The position numbers were made by a program, and so were the translations under genes. The notes beneath the pieces are model-generated. The model worked only from the letters and a program-made list of their open reading frames with translations. It did not search any database and was not told where the DNA came from. A stretch of DNA of 64,000 nucleotides from Escherichia coli (lineage in GTDB: Bacteria; Pseudomonadota; Gammaproteobacteria; Enterobacterales; Enterobacteriaceae): NCBI RefSeq assembly GCF_003018255.1, contig NZ_CP027440.1. One strand, 5' to 3'. Of this stretch, positions 4,896 through 16,679 are shown piece after piece; within the stretch, counting starts at the first letter, position 1, and each line of letters begins with the position of its first letter.

Positions 4896-5137
4896 ATTAC
4901 CCCAGACACCCCATCTTATCGTTTGATAGCCCTGTATCCTTCACGTCGCATTGGCGCGAATATGCTCGGGCTTTGCTTTTCGTCGTCTTTTATAAAGCCA
5001 CGTAAAAGCGGTGACGTCAAATGCTGCGAAATCGCTTCAGCAAACGAATAAATAGCAGGAATTTACGCCATTAAATTCATGACGCTTTAAATAAGCGTAA
5101 CTTATGGGAATGTTAAAAAATCGCCTCGAGTAACACC

Positions 5138-5195
5138 AAAGGTGTAGGTCGGATAAGATGCGTAAGCATCGCATCCGACATTGTTTGGCCTACGT
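5138..5195. repeat. REP element
   Basis: GGTGTAGGTCGGATAAGATGCG...GCATCCGACA palindromic REP consensus between ppc and argE. Confidence 0.65.
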
Positions 5196-5196
5196 T

Positions 5197-6348
5197 TTAA
5201 TGCCAGCAAAAATGGTGAATCACCTGGGTGATCAGTTCGCGGGTGGGCTTGATAAACCTCGTCTCCAGATATTCATCAGGCTGATGAGCCTGATTAATTG
5301 AGCCAGGCCCCAGAACCAGCGTCGGGCATAACGTTTGAATAAACGGCGCTTCGGTACAGTAATTCACCACTTCGGTCTTTGCTCCGAGCAATTTCTCAAC
5401 CACTTCAACCAGTTTATGATTCGGTGGGCATTCATAGCCAGGGATCGGCGGATGCAGCTCGTCGACCGTCAGACGACCCGGCCAGCGTTCGCTCACTGGA
5501 GCCAATGCATCGTTGAGCAAACCATTAAGTTCATTGAGTGTCATGCCTGGCAGCGGACGAATATCCATATGCAACTCACAGCAAGCACAAATACGGTTAG
5601 AAGCGTCGCCACCGTGGATATGCCCGAGGTTGAGCGTAGGGTATGGCACGGTAAACGCGTCGTAGTGATAACGTTCTTTCAGGTTATCGCGCAATTGCAA
5701 AATATGCCCGATGGCGTCGTGCATCAGTTCGATAGCGTTAACTCCGCGTGCTGGATCGCTGGAGTGGCCCGACTGGCCCTGAATACGGATGGCGTTAGAG
5801 ATATGACCTTTATGCGCGCGTACCGGTTGCAGCGACGTTGGCTCGCCAATGATGGCGCAATCCGGGCGCAGGGCGGTAGTTTCGGCAAAATAACGCGCTC
5901 CGGCCATACTGGTTTCTTCATCGGCAGTCGCCAGAATGTAGAGCGGTTTTGCAAGCTTCGTGACGTCGACATCGCGTAGCGCATCAAGGATAAACGCAAA
6001 AAAGCCTTTCATGTCGGCGGTGCCTAAGCCGTAAAGCTTGCCGTCATGCTCCGTCAACGTAAATGGATCGCGCGTCCAGCGTCCGTCATCAAATGGCACC
6101 GTATCGGTATGCCCCGCCAGCAACAAACCGCCAGCCCCCTGTCCGCAACTGGCCAGCATATTAAATTTGTTGCGAGTTCCTGGCACAGGCTGTACTTCCA
6201 CATTGAAGCCTAAATCCTTAAACCAGTCCGCCAGCAGAGTGATTAAATCTGCATTGCTTTGATCGAGTGCCTCTTCCGTGGCGCTTATTGAAGGTGTGGC
6301 AATCAGAGCACGGTAAATCTCGATAAATGGCGGTAATTTGTTTTTCAT
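5197..6348 (-). CDS. argE: Acetylornithine deacetylase ArgE (383 aa)
   Basis: ORF 5197..6387; the internal Met giving [23 protein letters not shown] matches the ArgE start; M20 peptidase family. Confidence 0.93.
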
Positions 6349-10221: not shown

Positions 10222-11436
10222 ATGAAAATTATTGCTGCAGATGTTTTTGTTACTTGCCCAGGGCGTAATTTCGTTACGCTTAAAATAACCACTGCAAGCG
10301 GACTTTGTGGATTAGGAGATGCCACGTTAAATGGTCGCGAATTGTCGGTCGCTTCTTATCTGAAAGATCATCTTTGTCCACAACTAATTGGCCGCGATGC
10401 CAGCCGTATCGAAGATATCTGGCAATTCTTTTATAAAGGTGCTTACTGGCGACGTGGCCCCGTCACGATGTCAGCCATTTCTGCCATTGATATGGCGTTG
10501 TGGGATATCAAAGCAAAAGCGGCAAATATGCCATTGTATCAACTGCTTGGTGGTGCTTCTCGTGAAGGCGTTATGGTTTATTGCCACACCACCGGGCGTA
10601 CGATTGATGAAGTCCTTGAAGACTATGCAAAGCACCAGCAGATGGGCTTTAAGGCGATTCGTGTGCAGTGTGGTGTACCGGGTATGCAAACCACCTATGG
10701 TCTGGCGAAGGGCAAAGGACTGGCGTATGAACCAGCAACCAAAGGCCTGTGGCCAGAAGAGCAGTTGTGGTCTTCAGAAAAGTATCTCGATTTTACGCCG
10801 AAGTTATTTGAAGCGGTGCGTAATAAGTTCGGTTTTAACGAACATCTGTTGCATGACATGCACCATCGCCTGACCCCCATCGAAGCGGCGCGCTTTGGGA
10901 AGAGCATTGAAGATTACCGCCTGTTCTGGATGGAAGATCCGACGCCTGCCGAGAATCAGGAATGTTTTCGTCTGATTCGTCAGCATACCGTGACGCCGAT
11001 TGCGGTCGGTGAAGTGTTTAACAGTATCTGGGACTGCAAGCAGTTAATCGAAGAGCAGCTGATTGACTATATTCGCACGACGATTACCCATGCAGGCGGC
11101 ATTACCGGGATGCGACGGATTGCCGATTTTGCATCGCTTTATCAGGTACGTACCGGTTCGCATGGCCCTTCAGATTTATCGCCTGTTTGCCATGCGGCGG
11201 CGCTGCATTTTGACCTCTGGGTGCCAAACTTTGGCGTTCAGGAGTACATGGGCTATTCCGAACAAATGCTTGAAGTCTTCCCGCATAGCTGGCGCTTCGA
11301 TGAAGGTTATATGCACCCAGGCGATGAACCGGGGCTGGGTATTTCTTTCGATGAGAAACTGGCGGCGAAATATCCGTATGACCCGGCGTATCTCCCCGTC
11401 GCACGACTGGAAGATGGCACATTGTGGAACTGGTAA
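10222..11436 (+). CDS. Enolase-superfamily dehydratase, RspA / D-mannonate dehydratase (ManD) subgroup paralog (404 aa); accessory gene
   Basis: ORF 10162..11436; RBS AGGAG 10 nt upstream of ATG 10222; product [47 protein letters not shown]... is near-colinear with recalled E. coli RspA; putative metal-ligand/catalytic motifs [20 protein letters not shown] present. Confidence 0.85.
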
Positions 11437-11502
11437 TAGCGGTTCGCTTAATTATTTTCTGAATATTCATCAAATCGATTAATTCCGCTCAAGGAGCTAA
11501 AA

Positions 11503-12786
11503 ATGGACGTTGATGTGTCAACCAGTGTTGCGGGTAATAAACCGCAACGGATTCGTCGTATTCAGACAGTGACCCTGGTTTTATTATTTATGGCGGGGAT
11601 CGTTAATTTTCTCGACCGTTCGTCATTGAGCGTGGCAGGTGAAGCAATTCGTGGCGAGTTAGGATTATCCGCTACCGAGTTTGGTGTTTTGCTTTCTGCA
11701 TTTTCTCTGTCTTATGGTTTTTCACAACTTCCTTCCGGTATTTTGCTAGACCGCTTTGGCCCACGAATAGTGTTAGGCGCAGGCTTAATATTCTGGTCAT
11801 TAATGCAGGCATTAACAGGAATGGTTAATTCTTTTAGCCACTTTATTTTAATGCGTATCGGTCTGGGTATTGGCGAAGCGCCATTTATGCCTGCGGGAGT
11901 AAAGTCGATCACCGACTGGTATGCGCAAAAAGAACGCGGCACGGCGCTGGGGATTTTTAACTCATCTACCGTTATCGGTCAGGCTATCGCGCCTCCTGCT
12001 CTTGTATTGATGCAACTGGCATGGGGCTGGCGGACGATGTTTGTCATCATCGGCGTAGCAGGGATTCTGGTTGGGATCTGTTGGTACGCGTGGTATCGCA
12101 ACCGGGCGCAGTTTGTCCTGACCGAGGAAGAACGGACATATCTCTCCGCGCCGGTTAAACCGCGTCCACAGTTACAATTTAGCGAGTGGCTGGCGCTGTT
12201 TAAGCATCGGACAACCTGGGGGATGATTTTAGGTTTCTCTGGCGTCAATTATACCGGTTGGCTCTACATCGCGTGGTTACCCGGTTATTTGCAGGCCGAA
12301 CAAGGTTTCAGTCTGGCGAAAACCGGTTGGGTGGCGGCAATTCCTTTCCTCGCGGCGGCGGTCGGGATGTGGGTTAACGGTATTGTTGTCGATCGGCTGG
12401 CGAAAAAAGGCTATGACCTGGCGAAGACGCGTAAAACGGCGATTGTCTGCGGTTTGATGATGTCGGCATTAGGCACGTTGCTGGTCGTGCAATCTTCCTC
12501 GCCAGCCCAGGCGGTAGCGTTTATCTCAATGGCGCTGTTCTGCGTGCATTTCGCGGGAACATCTGCATGGGGGCTGGTGCAGGTGATGGTGTCAGAAACA
12601 AAAGTGGCTTCCATCGCCGGGATTCAAAACTTTGGCAGTTTTGTTTTTGCTTCCTTTGCTCCGATCGTAACCGGTTGGGTCGTGGATACCACACACTCGT
12701 TTAATCTGGCGCTGGTTATCGCGGCCTGTGTGACGTTCACCGGGGCGCTGTGTTACTTCTTTATTGTCAAAGATCGGATTGAGTAA
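11503..12786 (+). CDS. MFS transporter, anion:cation symporter (ACS) family, putative acid-sugar/aldonate permease (427 aa); accessory gene
   Basis: RBS AAGGAG upstream; about 12 predicted TM helices; motifs NFLDRSSLSVAG, GIGEAPFMP, RKTAIVCGL as in DgoT/RhmT/GudP-type transporters; 66-bp gap with no terminator after the dehydratase suggests co-transcription. Confidence 0.8.
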   Translation: MDVDVSTSVAGNKPQRIRRIQTVTLVLLFMAGIVNFLDRSSLSVAGEAIRGELGLSATEFGVLLSAFSLSYGFSQLPSGILLDRFGPRIVLGAGLIFWSLMQALTGMVNSFSHFILMRIGLGIGEAPFMPAGVKSITDWYAQKERGTALGIFNSSTVIGQAIAPPALVLMQLAWGWRTMFVIIGVAGILVGICWYAWYRNRAQFVLTEEERTYLSAPVKPRPQLQFSEWLALFKHRTTWGMILGFSGVNYTGWLYIAWLPGYLQAEQGFSLAKTGWVAAIPFLAAAVGMWVNGIVVDRLAKKGYDLAKTRKTAIVCGLMMSALGTLLVVQSSSPAQAVAFISMALFCVHFAGTSAWGLVQVMVSETKVASIAGIQNFGSFVFASFAPIVTGWVVDTTHSFNLALVIAACVTFTGALCYFFIVKDRIE

Positions 12787-12825
12787 CCGTTACTATCAGG
12801 CTCTCTTGCTGTGGGCCTGTAGAAT

Positions 12826-12942
12826 AAAAAAAAGCGGATCCTGGAGATCCGCAAAAGTTCACGTTGGCTTTAGTTATTCGAGTTGAGAAACTCTCGAAAC
12901 GGGCAGTGACTTCAAGGGTTAAAAGAGGTGCCGCTCCGTTTC
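12826..12942 (-). ncRNA. oxyS: OxyS small regulatory RNA
   Basis: Reverse complement reads GAAACGGAGCGGCACCTCTTTTAACCCTTGAAGTCACTGCCCGTTTCGAGAGTTTCTCAACTCGAATAACTAAAGCCAACGTGAACTTTTGCGGATCTCCAGGATCCGCTTTTTTTT, the known OxyS sequence with its terminator hairpin; divergent from oxyR. Confidence 0.93.
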
Positions 12943-13037
12943 TGTGAGCAATTATCAGTCAGAATGCTTGATAGGGATAATCGTTCGTTGCTATGCTACC
13001 TATCGCCGCGAACTATCGTGGCAATGGAGGATGGATA

Positions 13038-13955
13038 ATGAATATTCGTGATCTTGAGTACCTGGTGGCATTGGCCGAACACCGCCATTTTCGGCGTGCG
13101 GCAGATTCCTGCCACGTTAGCCAGCCGACGCTTAGCGGGCAAATTCGTAAGCTGGAAGATGAGTTGGGTGTGATGTTGCTGGAGCGGACCAGCCGTAAAG
13201 TGTTATTCACCCAGGCGGGAATGCTGCTGGTGGATCAGGCGCGTACCGTGCTGCGTGAGGTGAAAGTCCTTAAAGAGATGGCAAGCCAGCAGGGCGAGAC
13301 GATGTCCGGACCGCTGCATATTGGTCTGATTCCCACGGTTGGACCGTACCTGCTACCGCATATTATCCCGATGCTGCACCAGACCTTTCCAAAGCTGGAA
13401 ATGTATCTGCATGAAGCACAGACCCACCAGTTACTGGCGCAACTGGACAGCGGCAAACTCGATTGCGTGATCCTCGCGCTGGTGAAAGAGAGCGAAGCAT
13501 TCATTGAAGTGCCGTTGTTTGATGAGCCAATGTTGCTGGCTATCTATGAAGACCATCCGTGGGCGAACCGCGAATGCGTACCGATGGCCGATCTGGCAGG
13601 GGAAAAACTGCTGATGCTGGAAGATGGTCACTGTTTGCGCGATCAGGCAATGGGTTTCTGTTTTGAAGCCGGGGCGGATGAAGATACACACTTCCGCGCG
13701 ACCAGCCTGGAAACTCTGCGCAACATGGTGGCGGCAGGTAGCGGGATCACTTTACTGCCTGCGCTGGCTGTGCCGCCGGAACGCAAACGTGATGGGGTTG
13801 TTTATCTGCCATGCATTAAGCCGGAACCACGCCGCACTATTGGCCTGGTTTATCGTCCTGGCTCACCACTGCGCAGCCGCTATGAGCAGCTGGCAGAGGC
13901 CATCCGCGCAAGAATGGATGGCCATTTCGATAAAGTGTTAAAACAGGCGGTTTAA
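13038..13955 (+). CDS. oxyR: LysR-family oxidative stress regulator OxyR (305 aa)
   Basis: ORF 12993..13955; the internal start giving [44 protein letters not shown] matches OxyR; redox cysteines present (…[18 protein letters not shown]…). Confidence 0.96.
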
Positions 13956-15338
13956 GCCATTTAGCGCAGCTACCCGATAGGCTTCCGCCATCGTCGGGTA
14001 GTTAAAGGTGGTGTTGACGAAGTACTCAATAGTGTTGCCGCCACCTTTCTGTTCCATAATCGCCTGACCGATATGAATAATTTCGGCAGCGCGCTCGCCA
14101 AAGCAGTGAATACCCAGAATCTCTTTTGTTTCCCGATGGAACAAAATTTTCAGCGTGCCCACGTTCATGCCGACGATTTGTGCACGTGCCAGATGTTTAA
14201 ACTGGGCGCGGCCCACTTCATATGGCACTTTCATCGCGGTCAGCTGCTGTTCGGTTTTGCCCACAGAGCTGATTTCCGGGATGGTGTAAATACCGGTAGG
14301 GATATCTTCAATCAGATGTGCGGTGGCTTCACCTTTCACCAGCGCCTGCGCGGCAATGCGCCCCTGGTCATAGGCCGCCGACGCCAGGCTCGGATAACCA
14401 ATCACGTCGCCCACCGCGTAAACGTGCGGCTGTGCGGTCTGATACATGCTGTTGACCTTCAGCTGTCCGCGGCTGTCAGTTTCCAGCCCAATGTTCTGTA
14501 ACGCCAGCGAATCGGTATTACCGGTGCGACCGTTGGCATAGAGCAGGCAGTCAGCTTTCAGTTTTTTACCCGACTTCAAATGCATGATCACACCGTCGTC
14601 ACAGCCTTCGATCTTCTCGTACTCTTCGTTGTGACGAATCACTACGCCACTGTTCCAGAAGTGATAGGAGAGAGAATCTGACATCTCTTGATCGAGAAAT
14701 GCCAGCAGGCGATCGCGGGTGTTGATCAGATCCACTTTTACATCCATACCGCGGAAGATCGACGCATATTCACAGCCGATCACTCCAGCACCATAGATAA
14801 GTACATGGCGCGGTTCGTGGTGCATGCTAAGAATTGAGTCGCTGTCGTAAATGCGTGGATGCGTGAAATCAACATCTGTTGGATGATATGGACGAGAGCC
14901 GCAAGCAATAACAAATTTTTCAGCGGTTAGTGTCTCGACGCTGCCGTCCGGGCAATCCAGCGCCAGCGTGTGCTCGTCAACAAAGCGAGCGTTCCCCTGC
15001 AATATTTCACAGTGATTACGTTCGTAAAATCCCTGACGCATGCGCGTTTGTTGATTAATCACGTTATCGGCATGGTTAAGGATATCGGCAAAAGAAGAGC
15101 GGAGCAGTCGCGAATGGTCGCTGTAAAGTGGGTTTTGATTAAATTCTATAATGCGGCTGACGGCGTGACGGAGAGCTTTCGACGGGATGGTGCCCCAGTG
15201 GGTGCAACCGCCGCCAACATTTTGATAACGCTCGATAACTGCGACGCGCGCACCTTGCTTAACCAGGCCCATTGCAGCGCCTTCGCCGCCGGGGCCGGAA
15301 CCTATTACTATGGCATCGTAATCGTAGGAATGTGGCAT
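13938..15338 (-). CDS. sthA: Soluble pyridine nucleotide transhydrogenase SthA/UdhA (466 aa)
   Basis: [27 protein letters not shown]-binding N-terminus; 3' end overlaps the oxyR 3' end by 18 bp (convergent). Confidence 0.96.
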
Positions 15339-15672
15339 GGTAGGGCTTACCTGTTCTTATACATAAAAGCAACAGAATGGTAACATTTTATCGCGGGTAA
15401 GCCAATTGATCCCCGTCATTTATCTGGCTATATCGTGAGCGGCCTTTGCTTTGTCTGTTTCTTACTTTTGACCTGAACGTTTTATTGGATTTTTATCGAC
15501 GATACTCTCCGTTTAAGCGGCAGGTTTCCGTTGTACGTAAAAGAACCGGCCAAAGAATTGCAGTAAATATGTTTTATTGCGTTACCGTTCATTCACAATA
15601 CTGGAGCAATCCAGTATGTTCATTCTCTGGTATAGTGCCAGCAGTACTTTTGGCAAGGATTCAGACATCGTG

Positions 15673-16320
15673 ATGGGCGTAAGAGCGCAACAAAAAGAAA
15701 AAACCCGCCGTTCGCTGGTGGAAGCCGCATTTAGCCAATTAAGTGCTGAACGCAGCTTCGCCAGCCTGAGTTTGCGTGAAGTGGCGCGTGAAGCGGGCAT
15801 TGCTCCCACCTCTTTTTATCGGCATTTCCGCGACGTAGACGAACTGGGTCTGACCATGGTTGATGAGAGCGGTTTAATGCTACGCCAACTCATGCGTCAG
15901 GCGCGTCAGCGTATCGCCAAAGGCGGGAGTGTGATCCGCACCTCGGTCTCCACATTTATGGAGTTCATCGGTAATAATCCTAACGCCTTCCGGTTATTAT
16001 TGCGGGAACGCTCCGGCACCTCCGCTGCGTTTCGTGCCGCCGTTGCGCGTGAAATTCAGCACTTCATTGCGGAACTTGCGGACTATCTGGAACTCGAAAA
16101 CCATATGCCGCGTGCGTTTACTGAAGCGCAAGCCGAAGCAATGGTGACGATTGTCTTCAGTGCGGGGGCCGAGGCGTTGGATGTCGGCGTCGAACAACGT
16201 CGGCAATTAGAAGAGCGACTGGTACTGCAACTGCGAATGATTTCTAAAGGGGCTTATTACTGGTATCGCCGTGAACAAGAGAAAACCGCAATTATTCCGG
16301 GAAATGTGAAGGACGAGTAA
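15673..16320 (+). CDS. fabR: TetR-family fatty acid biosynthesis repressor FabR (215 aa; an upstream in-frame start at 15577 is possible)
   Basis: [55 protein letters not shown] region; ORF extends upstream to 15577. Confidence 0.9.
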
Positions 16321-16679
16321 TGAAACAAGCAAATCAAGATAGAGGTACGCTGCTGCTGGCGTTGGTTGCTGGCTTATCGATTAATGGTACTTTCGCAGCG
16401 CTGTTTAGCTCCATTGTGCCATTTTCTGTATTCCCGATTATTTCCCTGTTGCTGACGGTTTACTGCCTGCATCAACGTTATCTTAATCGCACCATGCCGG
16501 TAGGCTTGCCGGGTCTGGCAGCTGCCTGTTTTATTCTCGGCGTACTGCTGTACAGCACGGTAGTTCGTGCGGAATATCCGGATATCGGCTCTAACTTCTT
16601 CCCGGCAGTACTCTCCGTCATTATGGTGTTCTGGATTGGCGCGAAGATGCGTAACCGTAAGCAGGAAGTTGCTGAGTAA
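16320..16679 (+). CDS. yijD: Inner membrane protein YijD (119 aa)
   Basis: Hydrophobic 119-aa ORF whose ATG overlaps the fabR stop (TAATGA), consistent with the fabR-yijD operon. Confidence 0.85.

Follow-up and report, generated by a model that had tools for sequence, protein, structure and literature searches.

The window analysed here is a 64,000-nucleotide stretch of Escherichia coli contig NZ_CP027440.1, and positions are given in its coordinates unless stated otherwise. It carries oxyR and sthA (udhA) tail to tail on opposite strands. oxyR occupies 13038-13955 on the plus strand, encodes 305 amino acids beginning with MNIRDLEY, and ends with a TAA stop at 13953-13955; sthA occupies 13938-15338 on the minus strand, encodes 466 amino acids, and ends with a TAA that is the complement of 13938-13940. 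The sequence and the list of open reading frames place 13938-13955 in both coding sequences, giving a codon-aligned overlap of 18 bp in which each gene's part consists of five sense codons plus the stop. Around the junction the plus strand reads ...GAT AAA GTG TTA AAA CAG GCG GTT TAA GCC...; the overlap codons are TTA AAA CAG GCG GTT TAA in oxyR (LKQAV-stop) and TTA AAC CGC CTG TTT TAA in sthA (LNRLF-stop), and the stop of each gene is a leucine codon (TTA) of its partner. Since the ends of open reading frames are set by stop codons, the overlap is not an artefact of start-codon annotation.

In RefSeq, an identical E. coli strain (NZ_CP116067.1) and K-12 MG1655 are both annotated with this 18-bp overlap (in K-12, oxyR 4158490-4159407 and sthA 4159390-4160790; adding 4,145,452 to a window position gives the K-12 position, as verified on the sequence). 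Both the convergent overlap and its conservation with K-12, as described in an earlier note on this DNA, are thereby borne out. A 501-bp probe from the window found a match in 5425 of 5426 complete genomes at 95.8% identity or more. As opposite-strand protein-coding genes that share 3' nucleotides, oxyR and sthA form a convergent overlapping gene pair, and both encode real, conserved proteins: orthologues are 91-100% identical in 80 species, and structures of E. coli OxyR (PDB 1I69/1I6A) and of a soluble transhydrogenase homologue (9n4y) reach the last residue. A paper on SthA (JBC 2022) likewise describes the udhA (sthA) 3' end as overlapping the oxyR 3' end, and gives the overlap as 12 nucleotides; the sequence yields 18 bp when both stop codons are counted and 12 bp when neither is. 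The longest oxyR open reading frame starts at an in-frame ATG at 12993, 45 nt upstream of the annotated start. Every annotation uses 13038, and the stretch from 12993 to 13037 is probably just untranslated oxyR leader.

Upstream of oxyR and divergent from it lies the gene for the OxyS sRNA (12833-12942, minus strand; RF00035, 139.5 bits), the only family recovered in an Rfam search of 12000-16500. K-12 annotates oxyS; in the RefSeq table for NZ_CP116067.1, the interval from the MFS gene to oxyR carries no such feature. In the window strain, manD (D-mannonate dehydratase, ~10222-11436) and an MFS transporter gene (11503-12786) are located between argH and oxyS. K-12 MG1655 is without this pair, and its oxyS directly follows argH. 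The segment at ~10222-12786 is a strain-variable islet adjoining the oxyS/oxyR control region. Outside the Enterobacteriaceae, the gene divergent from oxyR encodes a peroxiredoxin-glutaredoxin fusion of 243-244 amino acids (AhpC-TSA and Glutaredoxin domains), which occupies the place of E. coli OxyS in Pantoea, Erwinia, Dickeya, Hafnia, Serratia and Edwardsiella (loci L083-L088, ~4940-5700).

The conservation of the overlap was followed in a scan with one genome per species, which returned 80 loci, all from Enterobacteriaceae, of which 79 were usable. The overlap measures 18 bp in 77 of these 79 species and 27 bp in the remaining two, Enterobacter soli and Pluralibacter gergoviae, in which the oxyR TAA has become CAG and the frame continues to the next stop. 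Enterobacterales outside the Enterobacteriaceae were sampled singly, with one protein each (Yersinia, the Morganellaceae and the Vibrionaceae lie outside this sample). With this single-protein sampling, the 18-bp overlap was found in Pantoea, Erwinia, Hafnia, Serratia, Edwardsiella, Prodigiosinella and Brenneria, and five further Enterobacterales families have it. The overlap is 9 bp in Musicola. In Pectobacterium, a frame-shifted oxyR tail gives an OxyR of 314 amino acids and an overlap of 43 bp. The oxyR-sthA overlap is real, ancient and more than a product of chance.

Dickeya is the sole lineage found in which oxyR and sthA are separated. In Dickeya dianthicola the genes do not overlap and have a 116-bp spacer between them, which consists of 15-nt and 18-nt tandem repeats (L085, 3894-4024). 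On either side of this spacer lies a diverged copy of the ancestral 18-bp segment, one copy reading SKQSA-stop for oxyR and the other LNRLF-stop for sthA. This arrangement looks like the resolution of an overlap by duplication and insertion; as Dickeya shows, the overlap can be undone.

In our reading of these alignments, the constraint on the shared bases would run in one direction: the SthA C-terminus sets the sequence, the OxyR tail hitch-hikes, and selection keeps the oxyR stop in place. The SthA C-terminus (...GLNRLF) is identical in all sampled Enterobacterales outside the Enterobacteriaceae, including the non-overlapping Dickeya, and the 464-amino-acid soluble transhydrogenase of PDB 9n4y likewise ends in GLNRLF. 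Within the overlap, LNRLF is unchanged in 75 of 78 species. These comparisons suggest that GLNRLF is held by constraint at the level of the protein. The OxyR residues encoded in the overlap vary (LKEAV, LKKAI, LKQTV and others), with all such changes being synonymous in sthA, and the residues directly before LKQAV are hypervariable (DGHFDKV, QGYMGST, MAQQCNA, VMIQRET and others). The alignment of other OxyR structures with E. coli OxyR ends at about residue 291. The last ~14 residues of OxyR thus appear free to vary, and its final five codons would amount to an antisense reading of the last five of sthA. At sthA Leu462, the codon complementary to the oxyR stop, 76 of 78 species use TTA or CTA; these two codons account for 6.7% of leucine codons elsewhere in oxyR and sthA, which is consistent with Leu462 being kept as TTA/CTA so that the oxyR stop stays. 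Three Pseudocitrobacter species (L028, L032, L035) have a 3-nt insertion in the OxyR tail and are alone in having a changed SthA C-terminus (LNRLW, with LPKAV in OxyR); an occasional change is possible even at the SthA end.

A variable OxyR tail, OxyR homologues that do not align past about residue 291, and a stop that moves to give overlaps of 9, 18, 27 or 43 bp are also what would be expected if the junction were solely a neutral by-product, in which intergenic DNA was lost, the oxyR frame ran on to the next stop in sthA, and only the two proteins were selected. Convergent overlaps are common, with 75 such gene pairs counted in E. coli (Huvet & Stumpf 2014, PMC4161906). The retention of a rare TTA or CTA at Leu462 speaks against this reading, as do features of the RNA 3' ends described below.

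Transcript data for the junction all come from K-12; the window strain differs from it at five positions in 13850-14100, none of them in the stems of the hairpins I1, I2 and I3 discussed below. Term-seq places the dominant ‘primary’ sthA 3' end at 4159345 on the minus strand, which corresponds to window position 13893 (Adams et al. 2021, PMC7815308). A TRS analysis that is independent of the Term-seq study (Nat Commun 2023) reports the same sthA end (4159345), an oxyR end at 4159504, and an oxyR 3' UTR of 100 nt ending at 4159506; the oxyR ends convert to window positions 14052-14054. From these published ends, the two mRNAs are complementary over ~160 nt (13893-14054, both strands). The operon overlap of Conway et al., as quoted by Huang et al., converts to 13686-14065. 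The SMRT-Cappable-seq supplements hold no oxyR or sthA entry.

Regions of bicyclomycin sensitivity, attributed to Rho, peak at 4159509 on the plus strand (window 14057, Rho score 5.1) and at 4159015 on the minus strand (window 13563, Rho score 5.8), as scored in 800-nt windows, in which read-through and new antisense transcription are indistinguishable (Adams et al. 2021, PMC7815308). A zone of sthA read-through and termination inside oxyR (13563-13687, minus strand) includes the minus-strand peak and the end of the Conway transcription unit (~13686). Past the sthA stop, the minus-strand RNA is C-rich and G-poor at 13588-13687 (C/G ~2), just before the Rho peak.

The earlier note had proposed that the two transcripts must overlap at their 3' ends and that there is no room for separate terminators. 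The first proposal holds: the K-12 ends at 13893 (sthA) and 14052-14054 (oxyR) overlap by the ~160 nt given above, and the non-overlapping 3' ends that the note named as the contrary outcome are not what the published K-12 maps show. The second is wrong, as sthA uses hairpin I1 (13898-13923) and oxyR uses hairpin I3 (14004-14048) with its U-rich tail, and Rho-dependent regions also occur further downstream on both strands. Each gene owns a 3'-end determinant that is embedded in the coding sequence of its partner.

Folding and repeat searches identified three perfect 8-bp inverted repeats (I1, I2 and I3) flanking the overlap, and the plus-strand RNA of 13930-14080 has a much more stable fold than its shuffled versions (z = -4.9). 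Conservation of the hairpins was assessed in an alignment of 78 species. I1 (GGCCAUCC-N10-GGAUGGCC; 13898-13923, minus strand) belongs to the sthA 3' UTR and lies inside oxyR codons 287-295; the sthA mRNA 3' end (13893) falls 5 nt downstream of it and 45 nt past the sthA stop. In sthA-sense RNA, the I1 helix is 97% paired across the 78 species. Compensatory changes affect three of its eight pairs, in 10 sequences, a level matched in none of 500 shuffles. One of them couples a nonsynonymous I>V change in OxyR with a synonymous change of an Asp codon. The 10-nt loop varies freely, at the amino-acid level included. Folding energies gave no strand-specific stability for I1, the plus-strand version being slightly more stable. 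The sthA end follows closely on a stable stem-loop without a U-tract, and the untranslated RNA beyond it is C-rich and bicyclomycin-sensitive; these are the features of Rho-dependent termination with a hairpin-protected, processed end.

I2 (13968-14003, plus strand) is located in the oxyR 3' UTR, inside the 3' coding region of sthA. It is conserved and is more stable on the plus strand in 74 of 78 species; no covariation was found across the 78 species, and the structural claim for I2 is limited to conservation.

I3 (14004-14048, plus strand) with its tail UUUCUGUUCCAU extends over 14004-14057. The hairpin lies inside sthA codons 428-444, the oxyR mRNA ends at 14052-14054 within the U-rich tail, and the plus-strand Rho peak coincides with the last position of the feature (14057). 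The I3 helix is 99.6% paired; six of its 15 pairs vary, only by A<->G exchanges opposite U, which keep the pairing on the oxyR-sense strand alone. In 77 of 78 species the plus-strand version of I3 is the more stable one, and its tail holds a mean of 6.5 U in 12 nt compared with 3.9 on the other strand. This plus-strand asymmetry could reflect a preference of sthA for pyrimidine-ending codons, not selection on the RNA. As expected of an intrinsic terminator, I3 has a GC-rich stem (GGUGGUG/CGCCACC) followed by UUUCUGUU, with the 3' end at 14052-14054; it is not a compact short-loop hairpin, having a 13-nt apical loop and an internal bulge. As to independence from Rho, the bicyclomycin-sensitive region on this strand peaks at 4159509 with the score of 5.1 noted above, and the 800-nt windows leave read-through and antisense transcription unseparated there too.

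A scan for consensus terminators and promoters over 13400-14600 called nothing at the junction and one below-chance site at 14082-14102; the scan made no call at the junction hairpins because their loops exceed its limit. A single bidirectional intrinsic terminator at the overlap, serving both genes, would find some support in the weak hairpin that spans the overlap (13935-13967) in the minimum-free-energy fold. The helix of that hairpin is 89% paired, with one position that pairs in half of the species, and the scan shows no terminator-like site at the junction. The 3' ends lie to either side of the overlap, with ~160 nt between them; these mapped ends refute a shared terminator, to which we give practically no credence. 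The overlap-spanning hairpin has one compensatory pair only, in two species, and we make no structural claim for it.

Synonymous sites record a further footprint. Entropy at third codon positions is 0.66 bits over the 32 sthA codons beneath the oxyR 3' UTR; the sthA mean is 1.03 bits, and the amino-acid-controlled expectation, taken from the same amino acids at other places, is 1.06 ± 0.065 bits (p < 5e-5). The measure leaves unspecified which overlapping function is selected. This loss of synonymous diversity exactly under the mapped oxyR 3' UTR, the compensatory substitutions in I1 (including the nonsynonymous OxyR change with its synonymous partner), and mapped 3' ends directly after conserved hairpins all count against a junction in which only the two proteins have been selected, and we regard that reading as very improbable.

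The complementary 3' ends raise the question of an excludon, i.e., overlapping transcripts of opposite-strand neighbours, first described in Listeria, of which mscL-arfA is a studied convergent case (PMC10070815). The transcript overlap is present in the published K-12 3' ends, and oxyR-sthA is one of the 165 convergent ‘excludons’ that ExcludonFinder catalogues as present in 50% or more of 58 transcriptomes (NAR 2025, PMC12288877). On literature data, RNase III-processed dsRNA is present as well: a p19-captured cluster of RNase III-cut dsRNA labelled ‘oxyR sthA, 3', Convergent’ (U00096.2 4157134-4157478) converts to 13659-14003 on both strands. It ranks #268 of 301 clusters in exponential phase and #345 of 383 in stationary phase, and captured dsRNA is ~38-fold less abundant at convergent 3' overlaps than at divergent 5' overlaps (Huang et al., mBio 2020, PMC7373196). 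In rnc mutants, the SthA and OxyR protein levels shift by 1.37/1.17-fold and 1.26/0.67-fold, an overall range of 0.67- to 1.37-fold (PMC7373196).

If the excludon were functional, the ~160-nt convergent overlap would itself have been selected, with high transcription of one gene lowering expression of the other by collision and RNase III cleavage and so linking the peroxide regulator to NADPH/NADH balancing. The entry in the E. coli ‘excludome’, the captured dsRNA, the conservation of the arrangement across Enterobacterales and the constrained synonymous sites under both 3' UTRs are in keeping with such a role, and the idea was raised earlier in the remark that the udhA/oxyR overlap ‘might indicate some transcriptional regulation’ (JBC 2022). 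Against it stand the small shifts of OxyR and SthA in rnc mutants and the position of the dsRNA cluster near the bottom of both lists, at a class of overlap that yields little dsRNA. In addition, SthA protein constraint and the 3'-end hairpins suffice to explain the conservation, Dickeya keeps its genes 116 bp apart, and the overlap has changed length in Musicola and Pectobacterium. We consider a functional excludon, and more generally any selected regulatory device at this junction, unlikely. In exponential-phase rnc-14 cells, AhpF (4.7-fold up) and AhpC (2.1-fold up) are among the most increased proteins, with OxyR barely changed (PMC7373196 Table S2). The rise could be a general stress effect; for a functional excludon it is a lead only, with many other causes possible.

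The specific form of coupling in which sthA transcription, as a read-out of NADPH/NADH status, would tune the level or 3'-end integrity of oxyR mRNA, or oxyR transcription that of sthA, by way of RNA polymerase collision and RNase III seems to us unlikely too. If true, it would tie the set-point of the peroxide response throughout Enterobacterales to the balance of redox cofactors. Coupling of oxyR and sthA expression, which the earlier note had put forward, is possible; judged from the sequence and the published data, it is probably incidental and its effect weak at most.

The explanation we favour, and consider likely as a whole, is that oxyR and sthA are two bona fide genes in an ancient tail-to-tail overlap, with a shared sequence held by SthA, 3'-end hairpins embedded in each other's coding regions, and weak, incidental coupling. 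Published K-12 data show that neither gene stops transcription at its own stop codon and that each RNA enters the other gene. The sthA end resembles the exonuclease-trimmed end of a transcript terminated by Rho 250-375 nt further into oxyR. The oxyR mRNA carries a 3' UTR of ~100 nt ending in the U-rich tail of I3. This hairpin has the appearance of either a weak intrinsic terminator or a protective structure, and read-through would be dealt with by Rho. The mRNAs are perfectly complementary over ~160 nt, some of which becomes dsRNA that is cut by RNase III. We infer that the embedded hairpins mainly define and stabilise the 3' ends, and that antisense or collision effects between the two genes are probably weak and incidental.

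The overlap, the transcript overlap and the idea of coupling are already known (JBC 2022; mBio 2020; NAR 2025), and the pair is ordinary for its class. This analysis adds, modestly, the direction in which the constraint runs, the conservation of 3'-end hairpins embedded in the partner gene together with their footprint at synonymous sites, and examples of lineages that have resized the overlap or, in Dickeya, undone it. The arrangement matters for deleting, tagging or recoding either gene: a knockout or C-terminal fusion of oxyR or sthA removes the 3' UTR and the 3'-end signal of its neighbour.

Compared with known systems, oxyR-sthA shows no essential difference from the convergent overlapping pairs counted in E. 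coli. Like them, it consists of real opposite-strand genes with each stop inside the other open reading frame, and movement of a stop codon produced the overlap; in some lineages the oxyR stop has kept moving (TAA>CAG giving 27 bp, a frameshift giving 43 bp). Its 18 bp exceed the few bases of the commonest overlaps, and it is unusually stable, being kept in at least five further Enterobacterales families. With excludons it shares the 3' transcript overlap, the RNase III-cut dsRNA and an entry on a published list; the defining outcome of an excludon is mutually exclusive expression, whereas the rnc-mutant proteomics for oxyR-sthA show small changes only.

The sthA end is most like those 3' ends of Rho-terminated transcripts that exonucleases trim back to a protective hairpin (Dar & Sorek 2018, summarised in PMC7815308): it lies 5 nt past a GC-rich hairpin without a U-tract, with a bicyclomycin-sensitive, C-rich stretch downstream. 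It differs in that I1 is inside the coding sequence of another gene, so that the same bases have to specify OxyR residues 287-295 as well. Bidirectional intrinsic terminators between convergent genes were reportedly described by Ju and colleagues in 2019. As in those systems, oxyR and sthA are convergent genes with hairpin-associated 3' ends on both strands. Here, however, two strand-specific signals ~160 nt apart leave the transcripts overlapping instead of meeting end to end; folded on the other strand, I3 loses 4 kcal/mol of stability and its tail has ~3.9 U.
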